64,000 bases of DNA from an uncultured Gammaproteobacteria bacterium (GTDB lineage Bacteria > Patescibacteriota > Patescibacteriia > Magasanikbacterales > GWA2-37-8). The notes under the pieces were generated by a model. It did no database searches. It saw only the letters and a list, made by a program, of their open reading frames with translations, and was not told where the DNA came from. The translations under genes and the position numbers were made by a program. The stretch is taken from contig CAZQUL010000001.1 of NCBI GenBank assembly GCA_964596525.1, forward strand, positions 460,830 through 524,829, written 5' to 3'. Positions 2,833 to 62,199 of this stretch are shown piece by piece; the stretch's first letter is position 1, and each line of letters starts with the position of its first letter.

Positions 2833-5800
2833 ATGTTCCAACGCGATCAATTGCAAGCCATGGACTTCGACGCCATCCGCCTCAAACTGGCGAGCCCGGA
2901 TGTCATCAAAGGCTGGTCTTTTGGCAAAGTAGAAAAACCCGAAACCATCAATTACCGCACCCAGAAACCGGAACGCGGTGGCTTGTTCGCCGAAGAAATC
3001 TTCGGGCCGACCAAAGACTACGAATGCCACTGCGGCAAGTACAAGAAAATTCGTTACAAAGGCATCGTCTGTGATAAATGTGGCGTAGAAGTCACCTACG
3101 CGCTCGTTCGCCGTGAACGCATGGGCCATATCGAACTCGCGGCTCCGGTGTCGCATATCTGGTTCTTGCGTTCCGTACCATCCAAAATTGGTTTGGTACT
3201 CGATCTCTCGGCCATGTCGCTTGAAAAAGTGATGTATTTTGCATCCTTCATCATCACCCACGTCGACGAAGAAGCCAAAAAACAGACCTTCGAACTCTTG
3301 CGCCAGGAATTCAAGACCAAACGCAAACAGCTCGACAAAGAGCGCGAACAATCCATCGAACGCGCCAACGCATCCAAAACCTCGGCCGAAGAACTCGAGA
3401 ACGTGGCTAATGAATTCGACCGCAAAGTGAAAGCGCTTGAAACCGATTTCCAGGCCGCGGACAAAGAACTCAAAGAGCTCCAGGTCCTTAAAATTATTTC
3501 CGAAACCCGCTACCAGGAGTTGTCGCTCCGTTACGGCCATCTTTTTGAAGCTGGCATCGGCGCCGAAGCCATCCACAAACTCCTCTCGCGCGTTGATCTT
3601 GAAGCCACGATGCAGCAGCTCACTGACGAGCAGGAAAAATCCAAAGGCGCGCGCCTCGAAGCCATCGTTCGCCGCAAAAAACTCCTTAAGAGTTTGCATA
3701 AAAACGGGTTGCGTCCGGAATGGATGGTACTAACTGTCCTCCCGGTTATCCCGCCGGATCTGCGCCCGATGGTCGCGCTCGATGGCGGCCGCTTTGCTAC
3801 CTCCGATTTGAACGACCTTTACCGCCGCGTCATCAACCGCAATAACCGCCTCAAGCGCCTCATCGAACTCGATGCGCCGGAAGTCATCTGCCGCAACGAA
3901 AAACGCATGTTGCAAGAAGCCGTCGACGCCCTTATCGACAACAACGCCCGCCACTCCAAAACCGTCACCGCTTCGACCGGCCAGAAACGCCAGCTCCGCT
4001 CGCTCGCCGACATCCTTAAAGGTAAGCAGGGCCGTTTCCGCCAGAATCTTCTTGGTAAACGTGTCGACTACTCCGGCCGCTCGGTTATCGTCGTCGGTCC
4101 GCAGCTCAACATCGACGAGTGTGGTTTGCCAAAACGCATGGCGCTCGAGCTCTTCAAGCCGTTCATCATGAGCGACATCATCAAACGCGAACTCGCTCAC
4201 AATGTGCGCAGCGCGAGCCGCTTCATTGAAGCGGAAAGCGACGAAGTGTGGGACATCCTCGAAGAACTCACGAAGAAAACCCGCGTGCTTTTGAACCGCG
4301 CTCCGACGCTGCACCGCCTCGGTATCCAGGCCTTCCGCCCGCGCCTCATTGAAGGTAAGGCCATCCAGCTCCATCCGCTCACCTGTACGGCCTTTAACGC
4401 CGACTTCGACGGTGACCAGATGGCCGTGCACCTTCCGCTTTCCGCCGAGGCCCGCTGGGAAGCTGAAAACCTTATGGCCGCCGAGAAAAACCTCCTCAAA
4501 CCGGCTACGGGTTTGCCAGTCGTTACTCCGAAACAGGACGTCGTACTCGGTTGTTTTTACATGACGAGCTACAACGCCGAAGATACAGGCGATGTAAAGA
4601 AATTCTTCGCGTCCGAACAAGAAGCCAAGCTCGCGTACCGCAGCCGCCTCGTGACGCTCCGCCAGCGCGTCAAGATTTTGCTCTCCCCGGAAACGATGAA
4701 CAAGTTCCCCGAAGGAACGGATCGTTTGGTGGAAACGTCGGTTGGCCGCCTACTCTTCAACGAAATCGTACCGAGCAAAATGCCGTTCTACAACGAGCAG
4801 ATCGACGTGAAAAAACTTTCCAAGGTCATTAGCTTGCACCTCGAATTCTACGGCCAAGAAAAGACCGCCTTCTTCCTCGACGACCTCAAGAACCTCGGGT
4901 TCCGCTACGCCACCCGCTCGGGCTTTTCGCTTGGCATGGAAGACTTCCCGCGCATCGAAGCCAAACCCGAAATTCTCAAAGAAGCTGATAAAAAAGTAGA
5001 AGAAATCGAAGATCAGTATGCTAATGGTTTGCTCACCCAGGCCGAACGCCATGCTGCGATCATCGAAATCTGGACCGGCGCCAAAGATAAAGTCATTGCC
5101 GGTAACAAAACCATCCTCAACAAGAACGGTCCCGTGTATGCCATGATCGATTCGGGTGCCCGCGGTTCCTACGGTCAGCTTGGTCAGGTTATGGGTATGA
5201 AAGGTTTGGTACAGTCGCCGTCCGGTGAAATCATTGAAATGCCGATCAAAGGCAACTTCAAAGAAGGTTTCACGTCGCTTGAATATTTCATCTCTTCGCA
5301 CGGTACGCGTAAAGGTCTTTCCGATACGGCTCTTCGTACCGCCAACGCCGGGTACCTTACCCGCCGTTTGGTCGACGTATCGCAAGATGTCATCGTTGTT
5401 GAAGACGATTGCGGTGAGAACATCGGCGAAGTCTTTACTGTTGAGCAGAGTAAACAAATGGGTGAGAAACTTGCTGACCGCGTGTGGGGTCGCTACACTG
5501 CTTCGGCCCTTAAGCACGACGGCAAAACCATCTTGGAGAAAGGTGAAATTATCGACGACAAGATGGCTCGCGAACTCGACAAAATGGGCGTACAGTCCGT
5601 GCACGTGCGCAGCATCTTGCAGTGCCGTTTGCCCAAAGGCGTCTGCCGCAAGTGCTATGGTTTCGATCTCTCCAACAATAAACCGGCTGAAATGGGTACC
5701 GCTGTCGGCATTATCGCCGCGCAATCCATTGGTGAACCGGGTACACAGCTGACCCTTCGTACTTTCCACGCCGGTGGTGTTGCTGGTGGCGATATTACGC

Positions 5801-22347: not shown

Positions 22348-22959
22348 TTACGGAGCGGGAGGGGGAGTGGGAGGGGACGACTCGGCGGGTGGGGTCGGTG
22401 CCGCGGTGGAAGCTGGGGGCGCGGCTGGCGTGGTCGACGCAGCGTTCTGCTCGGGGGTCGGGGCGGGCGGATCTGCCGGGGCCGGGGTGGCGACCGTCGG
22501 GCAGCTCACGATCCAGGCCGGCATCTGCTTCTTCTGCTCCTTGCCGGGCGGGAGCTTCTTCGTCTCCTGGAGCTCGATCATCTTGAGCTCGCCGAGCCAT
22601 GTGCCGTTCGCGAGGATGTAGATCGAGTTGACCATCAAACCGTCGGATACGGCCGGACGGCTGCCATCGGCGCAGGTGTAGGCCAGATTGTCGCGGTAGC
22701 GCGTAGCCTTGAAGTAGACGAACCGGCCCGGCTCCCACGACTCGAACTCGTAGTCGCGCTTGTCGAGTGCGTCGGAAGCCGTGGTGGGGGTCTTGTTGCC
22801 AGCCTTATCGGTCGTGCCGGTGCCGAGCGGGGCAATGAGCGTGTAGCCCCGGTCGGGCTTGGGCGTTGGTGCTGGCACCTGGGCATGGCTCGCTTGTGCA
22901 GTAAGCAACAGGGCGGAAAGAATGAAGGAAATCAGGTTCTTACTGGTCGATCGGTTCAT
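22348..22959 (-). CDS. Secreted Pro/Ala/Thr-rich low-complexity protein
   Basis: ATG start at 22959 has an AAGGAGGGG SD and signal peptide MNRSTSKNLISFILSALLLTAQASHA. The track's TTG-start extension to 23013 overlaps the promoter -35 box. Confidence 0.6.
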   Translation of the reverse strand: MNRSTSKNLISFILSALLLTAQASHAQVPAPTPKPDRGYTLIAPLGTGTTDKAGNKTPTTASDALDKRDYEFESWEPGRFVYFKATRYRDNLAYTCADGSRPAVSDGLMVNSIYILANGTWLGELKMIELQETKKLPPGKEQKKQMPAWIVSCPTVATPAPADPPAPTPEQNAASTTPAAPPASTAAPTPPAESSPPTPPPAP

Positions 22960-22984
22960 GGGCCCCTCCTTTGCAACAAAAACA

Positions 22985-23013
22985 ATTATGCCTGAAACTA
23001 GCGATTTTGTCAA
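22985..23013 (-). promoter_or_regulatory. Sigma70-type promoter (TTGACA-17-CATAAT) of the Pro-rich protein gene
   Basis: Minus-strand reading: cTTGACAaaa tcgctagtttcagg CATAAT. Confidence 0.55.
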
Positions 23014-23056
23014 GCCTTTAGTGCGTAAAATCCTCTACTGTGCAAGGGTATTTTCT

Positions 23057-23085
23057 TTGACAATTTATGCACGAACGTCTACGAT
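23057..23085 (+). promoter_or_regulatory. Sigma70-type promoter TTGACA-17-TACGAT
   Basis: Lies 47 nt upstream of the 23132 ORF. Confidence 0.5.
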
Positions 23086-23131
23086 GTTGGGGGTCTAAAT
23101 ATACCATCTTACCAAACACCGAGGGTTCATC

Positions 23132-23671
23132 ATGGGTGTTACCTACTGTTACGCTTTTACGCCACTCATCGGCGAAGACGAGCTTGCCACGTTGGTCAAA
23201 AACGACGCTTTCGGTAAACTCTTTTTGGCTCGCGTGTGCCTCACCAAACGAACGTTGCCGCGATTGCCTGGGCGGTCGTTTGTGGCCGGTATGGTCGAGC
23301 AGGGAGAGCTTTTTGGCGAACCGTACGACCGTCCGCTTGTGGATTTCAATCTCGTTTGCACGCTTCGTACTTTCCGTGAGGTCGGGCCGCATCATTTTCA
23401 CTTGACCTTCTCGACCGTACGTCCGGCCGGGGTGCGCGACTGGACATACCTCGGTGGTGAATATTGGAAAGTTTATGCCCGCGGGCACGTTTATTTTTTC
23501 GACGACGGGCATGAACCAGAGGGTCGGCTTATCATTAGCCGCAAAGAAGCTGCTGATTTGTGGCGGACAGAACAGGAATATCTCAGCCTCCGCCAGGAAC
23601 ATCTGAACCGATTCCACACCGAAATCCTAGATTGGTTGTTTCGGCGGAACTACAAAGGGCGTATAGCCTAG
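23132..23671 (+). CDS. Hypothetical protein (179 aa)
   Basis: Preferred over antisense ORF 23018..23617 because it has an upstream promoter and a downstream terminator. Confidence 0.5.
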   Translation: MGVTYCYAFTPLIGEDELATLVKNDAFGKLFLARVCLTKRTLPRLPGRSFVAGMVEQGELFGEPYDRPLVDFNLVCTLRTFREVGPHHFHLTFSTVRPAGVRDWTYLGGEYWKVYARGHVYFFDDGHEPEGRLIISRKEAADLWRTEQEYLSLRQEHLNRFHTEILDWLFRRNYKGRIA

Positions 23672-23693
23672 CCGGTAGTAACCGGCTTTTTTT
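23671..23693 (+). terminator. Intrinsic terminator
   Basis: gccggt-agta-accggc followed by TTTTTTT. Confidence 0.65.
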
Positions 23694-23786
23694 AGCTTGT
23701 TTTAGACATTTTTACATATAAAATTTTTTTCTCCTGCCGATTTTCCTCTTAGTCTAGCCCCGTTTTTATTATCCACACTTGACAAC

Positions 23787-23815
23787 TTGACAAAAATGTA
23801 TTTTTCCGGTATAGT
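23787..23815 (+). promoter_or_regulatory. Consensus promoter cTTGACAaaa-17-GGTATAGT
   Basis: Perfect -35 TTGACA (tandem copy cttgacaacttgaca), 17-nt spacer, -10 TATAGT. No annotated plus-strand gene follows. Confidence 0.65.
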
Positions 23816-23915
23816 TAGACGTTAGTTAGACAGCAAAAACTCGTGGATGGACGCTAGCCTAGGTTCCCCATAGTTTAGCGCCCGTACCACGACAAGCATG
23901 GAGGTATATTGACGG

Positions 23916-24017
23916 ATGGTCTGGCTCCGGCTCGACCTCTCCATCGGTATTATCTTCTTGGTACGGCTTCTGGGGGTTCCCAAAGCCCCCATAATCAACA
24001 AACTCCCCCCGACCTAA
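23916..24017 (+). CDS. Possible 33-aa hydrophobic peptide MVWLRLDLSIGIIFLVRLLGVPKAPIINKLPPT
   Basis: GGAGG lies 11 nt upstream of the ATG. Single predicted TM helix. The stop codon lies inside the terminator stem. Confidence 0.3.
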   Translation: MVWLRLDLSIGIIFLVRLLGVPKAPIINKLPPT

Positions 24018-24050
24018 CCAGTCGGGGGGAGATGATTTTTATACGGTTTT
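24004..24050. terminator. Strong bidirectional intrinsic terminator
   Basis: ctccccccga-cctaaccag-tcggggggag, then atgatttttatacggttttt. On the minus strand it also ends the VanW gene. Confidence 0.7.
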
Positions 24051-62170: not shown

Positions 62171-62199
62171 TTGACATTCGCCACCACAATACATATAAT
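62171..62199 (+). promoter_or_regulatory. Consensus sigma70 promoter TTGACA-17-TATAAT upstream of nusA
   Basis: Both hexamers match the consensus perfectly with a 17-nt spacer. Confidence 0.75.

Follow-up and report, generated by a model that had tools for sequence, protein, structure and literature searches.

What is encoded in the interval that begins with a promoter-like sequence at position 23787 and ends with a hairpin and T-run at 24040 of a 64,000-nucleotide (nt) stretch of DNA (hereafter, the window; GenBank contig CAZQUL010000001.1, positions 460,830 to 524,829)? The initial annotation described this interval as having no annotated gene, proposed a standalone transcription unit for either a structured small RNA (sRNA) or a 33-amino-acid (aa) hydrophobic peptide, and named a conservation and covariation analysis across relatives and an Rfam scan as checks. 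Our comparison with related genomes leads us to read 23787-24040 on the plus strand as a non-coding, independently transcribed sRNA gene of an uncatalogued family found in one large branch of the Candidate Phyla Radiation (CPR, or Patescibacteria), with a trans-acting, protein-binding product, and we hold this reading as a whole with moderate confidence. Sequence comparison establishes that the element is conserved and covaries, lies on the plus strand, has a promoter and a terminator of its own, is used as a module, and lacks coding potential. The family is new, and its category, that of free-standing structured sRNAs, is familiar; the function is what we infer from these properties.

A core pattern (ACGACAAGCATGG, 18 to 28 arbitrary nt, and GCTYCGGC) run on a species-representative genome collection identified at least 119 loci, with about 110 true members among the matches listed. 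The named members among those matches were all Patescibacteria and comprised Magasanik-, Uhr-, Falkow-, Komeili-, Kerfeld-, Jackson-, and Buchananbacteria, which we take to belong to GTDB class ABY1. Because the core pattern fixed 20 nt, further samples were chosen solely by the VanW protein, whose gene converges on the element in the window. The RNA was present in all nine contigs chosen by exact VanW protein look-up and, according to a covariance model, in 73 of 80 VanW-anchored metagenome loci, where it lay within a few hundred nt of the VanW 3' end; most of the seven misses were loci that ended at the VanW gene. Overall, the RNA family was conserved, almost unchanged, across >180 related CPR/Patescibacteria loci. 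The resources built comprised an alignment of >170 sequences and the covariance model of the family, which found one copy in the window (70.4 bits).

The closest relatives of the window VanW protein came from Patescibacteria and Magasanikbacteria, and the other flanking genes in the window encode a thymidine kinase (TK) and Hsp20. Contigs with a VanW protein 45-52% identical to that of the window had the same order, namely, TK/Hsp20, VanW, a gap of ~450-500 nt, and then clpP or a small open reading frame (ORF). Their gaps contained long runs identical to the window (CCCGTACCACGACAAGCATGGAG ... TCTTCTTGGTACGG.TTCTGGGGGTT) and a conserved promoter, CTTGACAA-N17-TATAGT/TATAAT, and 23 and 26 consecutive nt were invariant in relatives whose VanW was only ~50% identical. 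The DNA was therefore far better conserved than the adjoining VanW protein, implying a functional non-coding element. VanW occurred within the ~8-kb locus in 87 of the 105 pattern-derived loci, usually as the immediate neighbor, and the RNA gene was located between VanW and clpP, two convergent genes, and could point toward either of them, which argues for a free-standing module rather than the leader of a downstream gene. Dozens of metagenome-assembled genomes in third-party annotation records titled "uncultured Gammaproteobacteria bacterium" (L007, L009-L012, L017-L020, and many more; related loci are numbered with the prefix L) showed the CPR-typical order Hsp20-VanW-RNA-clpP, and these titles look like mislabels or placeholders.

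Transcription signals bounded the element on both sides. The promoter assigned by the initial annotation was borne out: TTGACA (23787-23792), a 17-nt spacer, and TATAGT (23810-23815) on the plus strand matched 11 of 12 consensus positions, and there were 5 sites with at least 11 matches and a 17-nt spacer in the 64-kb window versus 0.1 expected from shuffles. The tandem TTGACA noted there was likewise present, as two copies of CTTGACAA (23778-23785 and 23786-23793), of which only the second is 17 nt from the -10 element. The TTGACA of the second copy is the assigned -35 element, and that of the first (23779-23784), 25 nt from the -10, is probably not used. The predicted 5' end of the transcript is the G of a conserved G-U-Y located 6 to 8 nt past the -10 (~23821), and the 3' end is predicted to lie within the U-run. 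Since the upstream 179-aa ORF (codon log-odds of 0.17, versus -0.02 for an overlapping minus-strand ORF) has its own terminator hairpin, the promoter of the RNA is an independent start.

At the 3' end, the predicted 10-bp GC hairpin with a T-run proved to be a real terminator with a longer stem than had been stated, of 11-12 pairs (9 G-C), followed by ATGATTTTTA. The same hairpin is bidirectional, as it also scored as a minus-strand terminator for the convergent VanW gene, whose stop is at 24050. A G+C-rich hairpin followed by a U-run, the signature of an intrinsic terminator, was thus found at 24003-24040 and was also formed by the rod-shaped RNA itself in many relatives; identity as a terminator accounts for neither the promoter, the invariant bulge, nor the covarying domain of 85 nt described below. 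The folding z-score of the interval against shuffled sequence was -5.8 for the plus strand and -4.1 for the minus strand. The promoter scan found no minus-strand promoter reading into the interval, and that scan included no dedicated search for an antisense antitoxin RNA.

The functional unit is a ~85-nt irregular hairpin domain (23882-23966) rather than the whole interval. A consensus structure was derived from a MAFFT alignment of 105 sequences built without structure information and consisted of helix P1, an unpaired stretch, helix P2, inner pairs, and an apical GGC-loop-GCU. Individual folds were long irregular hairpins with a one-sided 7- to 10-nt bulge ~9-11 bp above the domain base, and the bulge was unpaired in the minimum-free-energy (MFE) fold of nearly every family member shown. 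At the base of P2, GGAGG pairs with invariant UCUUC via two G-U pairs, and the helix is closed by the invariant 3' strand CUUCUUG. The spacing from GGAG to UCUUCUU was 49 nt in the three sequences for which it was counted manually (window, L001, and L005), and the length of the arm was nearly constant. Among the nested inverted repeats listed by the initial annotation, ccgtacc/ggtacgg corresponded to P1 and ggtc/gacc to lower P3, whereas atggag/ctccat fell outside the conserved fold, in which GGAGG pairs with the UCUUC instead. Beyond the domain, hairpins with other sequences (GGAGGGAA..UUCCCUC, GGUCGC..GCGACC, and GUCCCGA..UCGGGAC) were read directly at the position of the P4 hairpin in Magasanikbacteria-type relatives, so that P4 appears to be lineage specific but covarying.

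Covariation strongly supported this structure and, with it, the structured, standalone sRNA of the initial annotation, whose promoter, core, and 3' hairpin or U-run were kept across the >180 loci with abundant compensatory changes. Compensatory double changes occurred in 16 of the 24 consensus pairs of the 105-sequence alignment. Standard pairs filled 96.7% of the paired cells, compared with 76.1% in shuffles and 37-48% when the partners were slid by 1-3 columns; the number of cells changed on both sides was 527, compared with 150 +/- 11 in shuffles; and the covariation score was 0.62, compared with 0.20 in shuffles and 0.09-0.16 in slid alignments. None of 500 shuffles attained the observed values for pairing and covariation. 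In P1, both bases had changed in a compensatory manner in 7 of 9 pairs, single positions were occupied by as many as 5 pair types, and the near-invariant C-G at the top of P1 was swapped to U-A in L128 and L186, a compensatory change that supports the proposed register. G-U pairs made up 419 of 2,518 paired cells, and two of them were essentially invariant; on the other strand they would be A-C mismatches, and the plus strand is therefore the RNA strand.

Invariance was measured in the 73 loci chosen by VanW and not by RNA sequence. CAAGCAUG was identical in all 73, the next G was present in 70, and C-U-U-C-U-U-G on the opposite strand was kept in 66-73. The invariant core of the bulge is CAAGCAU with the following GG, and the ~16 invariant nt are concentrated at this one internal loop; the 5' part of the bulge (CACGA) varied in sequence and length. 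The apical loop also varied (UUCG in 22 loci, UCCG in 6, and UACG, CUCG, CAAG, GCAA, and others), and the closing GGC/GCU persisted. The CAAG of the bulge and the CUUG of the 3' strand are complementary and could alternatively form a 4-bp helix, a pairing that their invariance places beyond the reach of covariation.

Two resemblances of the invariant sequence were observed. The invariant 9-mer CAAGCAUGG was identical, in the same sense, to the ClpP catalytic A-S-M-G codons (GCA AGC AUG GG) in ~11 adjoining clpP genes; this identity is probably due to chance, given the conserved protein motif, yet clpP is the usual neighbor of the RNA. In addition, ACGACAA-GCAUGG of the RNA resembles the 3' strand of 16S helix 34 (ACGUCAA[AUCA]GCAUGG), and a 16S rRNA gene was present ~9 kb from the RNA in one relative (L005:21200-21953).

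The 33-codon ORF does exist in the interval, as stated by the initial annotation, with its stop inside the terminator stem and GGAGG 11 nt upstream. An ATG at the homologous columns was found in only 5 of 105 relatives, and a blastp-short search against the RNA-strand ORFs of all relatives matched the 33-aa peptide only to itself. The closest relatives keep the nucleotides and carry a 1-nt indel within the frame. Frames that open at another ATG, the invariant one where the bulge meets P2, were 3-100 codons long (median, 16), and their sequences were unrelated. The codon log-odds of the ORF, 0.24, lay between the values for real genes and noise, which means little at 33 codons. Furthermore, the GGAGG interpreted as a ribosome-binding site forms the 5' side of the conserved stem P2, and both it and the ATG are base paired in the conserved structure. 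We judge the ORF to be a chance reading frame and not a gene; the short ORF, start, and ribosome-binding site expected to be kept in a type I toxin or small membrane peptide gene were not kept in the relatives.

Table 1. Positions of the RNA gene, its structural elements, and adjacent genes in the window, with related loci that carry variant forms
Feature	Position or loci	Strand	Basis
Upstream ORF, 179 aa	23132-23671 (own terminator hairpin, 23670-23687)	+	ORF list
Tandem CTTGACAA CTTGACAA	23778..23793	+	Sequence, promoter scan
Sigma-70-type promoter, TTGACA-17 nt-TATAGT	23787..23815	+	Promoter scan and relatives
Predicted transcript, ~220 nt	23821..24040	+	G-U-Y start, terminator scan
Lineage-specific 5' leader hairpin	23837..23876	+	Fold
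P1	23882-23889 with 23959-23966	+	Consensus and covariation
P1 5' strand, CCGUAC and near-invariant C-A	23882..23889	+	
One-sided bulge, CGACAAGCAU	23890..23899	+	Conservation, MFE folds
P2	23900-23912 with 23944-23957	+	6/9 pairs with double changes
P2b	23914-23916 with 23940-23942	+	
33-codon ORF (begins inside helix P2b, stop inside terminator stem)	23916..24017	+	ORF list
P3	23918-23921 with 23934-23937; 23923-23925 with 23930-23932	+	Covaries
Apical loop, UCCG	23926-23929 (apical arm overall, 23900..23957)	+	
P1 3' strand, UG and GUACGG	23959..23966	+	
P4 hairpin, GGGGGUUC...GCCCCC, then A-rich linker	23971..23991	+	Fold, relatives
Bidirectional intrinsic terminator	Stem 24003-24031; plus-strand U-run 24036-24040; minus-strand UUUGUUGAUU	+ and -	Terminator scan
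Convergent VanW/PG_binding_4 gene, 661 aa	24050..26035	-	Pfam
Loci with tandem RNA domains	L016, L019, L052, L070, L098, L108, L110 (e.g., L098:3164-3265 and 3382-3483)		
Loci with clpP 3'-untranslated-region form	L007, L010, L071, L072, L075, L115 (e.g., L072:2608-2760)		
clpP genes sharing CAAGCAUGG	L006, L032, L046, L071, L079, L107, L120, L122, L190, L197, L198		

The transcription unit around the domain varied among the lineages. An own promoter, with a TTGACA-type -35 (at most 1 mismatch), a spacer of 16-18 nt (17 in nearly all), and TAnnnT, accompanied 94 of the 105 homologues. Most of these ~94 promoters had TG just before the -10 and G-T-T/C 6-8 nt after it, a signature that may be general to promoters and transcription starts in these bacteria or may be specific to this gene. 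The distance from promoter to core ranged from 27 to ~310 nt, and the length of the leader from ~20 to 300 nt; the leader of the window copy is short (23821-23881) and forms one hairpin. In the folds of 25 short-leader members, the whole predicted RNA of 125-140 nt, excluding any separate terminator, was a single rod with its 5' end paired to the sequence after P1; a U-run directly followed the rod in several members, and a separate terminator was present in many others. Magasanikbacteria-type genomes had an extra 5' domain of 150-200 nt. Buchananbacteria-like genomes had two tandem RNA domains ~120-220 nt apart behind one promoter; in most of these loci the upstream copy read CAUAGG in place of CAUGG, and in some its apical loop differed. 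In Uhrbacteria-type genomes, a promoterless rod began 17 nt past the clpP stop and, with its U-run, constituted the clpP terminator (the 3'-untranslated-region [3'-UTR] form).

We propose that the RNA would be made in large amounts and would act in trans as a protein-binding RNA, either as the subunit of a ribonucleoprotein (RNP) or as a decoy. The invariant bulge with its flanking G-U pairs would be the recognition site, and the fixed-length apical arm would place a second contact, at the tip, at a defined distance from it. Protein binding is suggested because RNAs recognized by proteins typically display invariant single-stranded nt on a fixed-length rod. More specifically, and tentatively, since we put the chance at a little short of even, the RNA may be a component or regulator of a hitherto undescribed housekeeping RNP specific to this CPR branch, representing a new functional class and not an analogue of 6S RNA, signal recognition particle (SRP) RNA, or any other catalogued RNA. 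If so, genomes of ~1 Mb would retain this RNA for something essential to reduced, probably symbiotic cells.

Several points weigh against this proposal. No gene beyond the VanW/Hsp20/clpP synteny block recurred near the RNA in the pattern-derived loci. A simple rod with one bulge could equally well expose a base-pairing seed. Because the pattern used to gather the 105 sequences itself specified 20 nt, the case for invariance at these positions comes from the smaller, synteny-based sets. Both transcript ends are predicted. Finally, the MFE structure of the window copy prefers a leader pairing that sequesters P1: in the unconstrained fold, the leader segment CGUGGAUGG (23841-23850) pairs with 23882-23891, which includes the P1 5' strand and the adjoining CA, in competition with P1, and the conserved fold is 6.8 kcal/mol less stable (-86.3 versus -93.1 kcal/mol). 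A GGUAYGG "anti-P1" segment was also present in the leaders of the three closest relatives, L001, L003, and L004. As modeled, the leader pairing may represent a conformational alternative or switch, or it may be the relic of a degenerate duplicated upstream copy.

Known RNA families gave no match. With Rfam 15, the element was not matched in the window at the gathering score, in the region at E <= 10, in 19 related loci at the gathering score, or in 16 at E <= 5. Matches elsewhere in the searched loci were limited to tRNAs, rRNA, and a group I intron, with no recurring sub-threshold family, and neither ARAGORN nor Rfam found a transfer-messenger RNA in the window. The intron (79 bits) was located at L029:3769-4021 on the minus strand of a Magasanikbacteria contig, ~700 nt from a tRNA gene. 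A description of such an RNA in these bacteria was not found in the literature on CPR/Patescibacteria non-coding RNA (ncRNA), 6S RNA, structured RNAs, and RNA motifs. The element resembles orphan structured ncRNA classes in being lineage wide and strongly covarying, with its own promoter and terminator. The raiA and OLE RNAs are such classes, found by comparative genomics; the present RNA differs from them in its unrelated sequence and fold, in being a much simpler single rod, and in being confined to CPR bacteria with ~1-Mb genomes.

The RNA shares several traits with the small SRP RNA (4.5S, ffs; RF00169): a length of ~110-140 nt, the shape of a hairpin rod that includes an asymmetric internal loop and is capped by a tetraloop, and the behavior of a housekeeping gene. 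Unlike SRP RNA, it has its invariant loop ~25 bp from the tip rather than adjoining it, a variable and usually UNCG-type tetraloop rather than GNRA, no symmetric AGCA loop, and no covariance-model match. The SRP helix-8 pattern, allowing up to 3 substitutions, matched in none of the loci, and SRP RNA was ruled out by the missing GNRA loop and by a tip-adjacent region that covaries without conserved unpaired bases. Likenesses to RNase P, in CR-V (ACAAGCAUGG versus ACAAAACAUGG) and CR-I, were dismissed, given that the positions are variable, the ~85-nt domain is too small, and no model matched.

6S RNAs are described as rods whose 5' and 3' ends pair and whose imperfect arms flank an asymmetric central loop; their central bubble is open on both strands, and its 3' strand carries a -10-like element (PMC8876501). 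The most specific candidate mechanism for the present RNA is 6S-like: a rod that mimics an open promoter and sequesters the sigma-70 RNA polymerase holoenzyme. We regard this as unlikely. In this model, the bulge would be the template-side 5' half of the central bubble, P1 would correspond to the downstream duplex opened in product-RNA synthesis, the invariant and complementary CAAG and CUUG could form a "bubble-collapse" helix, and the GGC/GCU tip, ~24 bp from the bulge, would lie at the position of the -35 element. Like 6S RNA (ssrS; RF00013), the element is independently transcribed from a very strong, conserved promoter and is probably abundant; its rod, in which the two ends of the RNA form the closing stem and a stem-loop caps the apex, was seen in the 25 short members and the consensus; and its conservation is centered on the central unpaired region, on both strands, with an apical arm of fixed length. 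No canonical 6S RNA was found in ~270 kb of these genomes, a sample far too small to inform.

In contrast to 6S RNA, the central loop is one-sided in nearly all folds shown, with 7-10 nt on the 5' side and 0-1 nt on the 3' side, where 6S RNA has its -10-like element, and a two-sided bubble could be attained in the modeled structure only if the G-U-rich base of P2 opened. In addition, the Rfam 6S models (RF00013/6S-Flavo) matched neither the window, whether at the gathering score or with E <= 10, nor any of the 35 related loci. The RNA is not filed as 6S for these two reasons. Moreover, the short forms of 125-140 nt and the apical arm of ~25 bp are below the size of known 6S RNAs, P1 spans only 8-11 bp before a junction in many lineages, and the tandem two-domain, 5'-extended, and clpP 3'-UTR forms are not in keeping with 6S RNA, for which the tandem and 3'-UTR forms are not known.

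Base pairing to a conserved RNA target, with the unpaired CAAGCAUGG as the seed and a complement, CCAUGCUUG, that contains AUG, is less probable still. Such a role would agree with an invariant stretch that is predicted to be unpaired in nearly every member shown and with the existence of 3'-UTR-derived forms, as known for many base-pairing sRNAs; in Uhrbacteria-type genomes, the rod resembles these in that the clpP mRNA ends in it and is terminated by it, whereas ~90% of genomes, including that of the window, have an own promoter instead. Target searches showed no enrichment in the ~1.1 Mb of sequence covered. The complement at up to 1 mismatch occurred 9 times in the window versus 5.1 +/- 2.2 expected, and exact matches in ~1 Mb of related loci numbered 2 versus 1.9 expected. 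Many matches to CCATGCTTG were the antisense of the RNA gene itself and of the clpP A-S-M-G codons, and the sole recurrent 9-mer match, antisense to the clpP active-site codons, thus reflects identity and not complementarity. A 10/12 complementarity to the 5' strand of 16S helix 34 of the relative L005 was not significant. Furthermore, seeds are seldom invariant across a class together with an invariant opposite strand and an arm of fixed length.

It is improbable that the element acts only in cis, as a bidirectional terminator, insulator, or mRNA stabilizer at the 3' ends of convergent VanW and clpP with no function as a free RNA. Its location, always between convergent genes, would fit, as would the bidirectional terminal hairpin of the window and the rods with U-runs that serve as terminators, including the promoterless Uhrbacteria-type copies. 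A terminator has no need of the near-consensus promoter found in 94 of 105 copies, however, and neither an invariant 9-nt bulge nor strand-specific G-U pairs are terminator features; many copies also have a separate terminator after the rod, and both orientations relative to the neighbors occur. A ligand-sensing or self-cleaving RNA, in which the invariant bulge and opposite strand would form a small binding or catalytic pocket, has a marginally lower probability. The ~16 invariant nt within one internal loop and the tandem copies, as in some riboswitches, could be so explained, and a simple rod with a single internal loop is also the form of some known aptamers; set against this, most loci lack a same-strand downstream gene, orientation is free, there is no evident expression platform, and no Rfam riboswitch or ribozyme matched. 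A riboswitch or other cis leader upstream of and co-oriented with its gene was rejected because, in the window and most loci, the gene that follows is convergent. The gene for a hydrophobic, type I toxin-like peptide, for which the ORF, its GGAGG, and its codon log-odds might speak, can be discarded with near certainty in view of the rare ATG, the broken frame, and the absence of any similar peptide in the relatives.

CPR/Patescibacteria represent a large share of bacterial diversity, have ~1-Mb genomes, and are almost all uncultured, and to our knowledge essentially no regulatory RNAs have been described in them. With synteny in well over a hundred species, a near-perfect promoter, and the ~16 invariant nt, the RNA is a strong candidate for an important, abundant RNA that is entirely absent from current annotation (Rfam 15). 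It provides RNA biology with a well-defined new family with clear mutational targets, as well as a handle on the regulation of transcription and protein quality control in minimal cells and on whether a 6S-type global regulator exists there.

Upstream of the RNA gene, the 179-aa plus-strand ORF and a 199-aa minus-strand ORF overlap (23018-23671), and the codon statistics and the terminator hairpin at 23670-23687 favor the plus strand. Neither ORF had a Pfam match or any likeness to the gene of the relatives at that position, and a link of the RNA to the upstream ORF was rejected, as the gene found there in relatives is unrelated. Four further near-perfect TTGACA-17-TATAAT promoters were located in the window, at 62171-62199 (+), 30536-30508 (-), 29673-29645 (-), and 23013-22985 (-), and one of these four matched 12 of 12 consensus positions. 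The promoter at 23013-22985 falls within the listed start of a 221-aa ORF (22348-23013), and this gene probably starts at a downstream Met, residue 19 (MNRSTS...).

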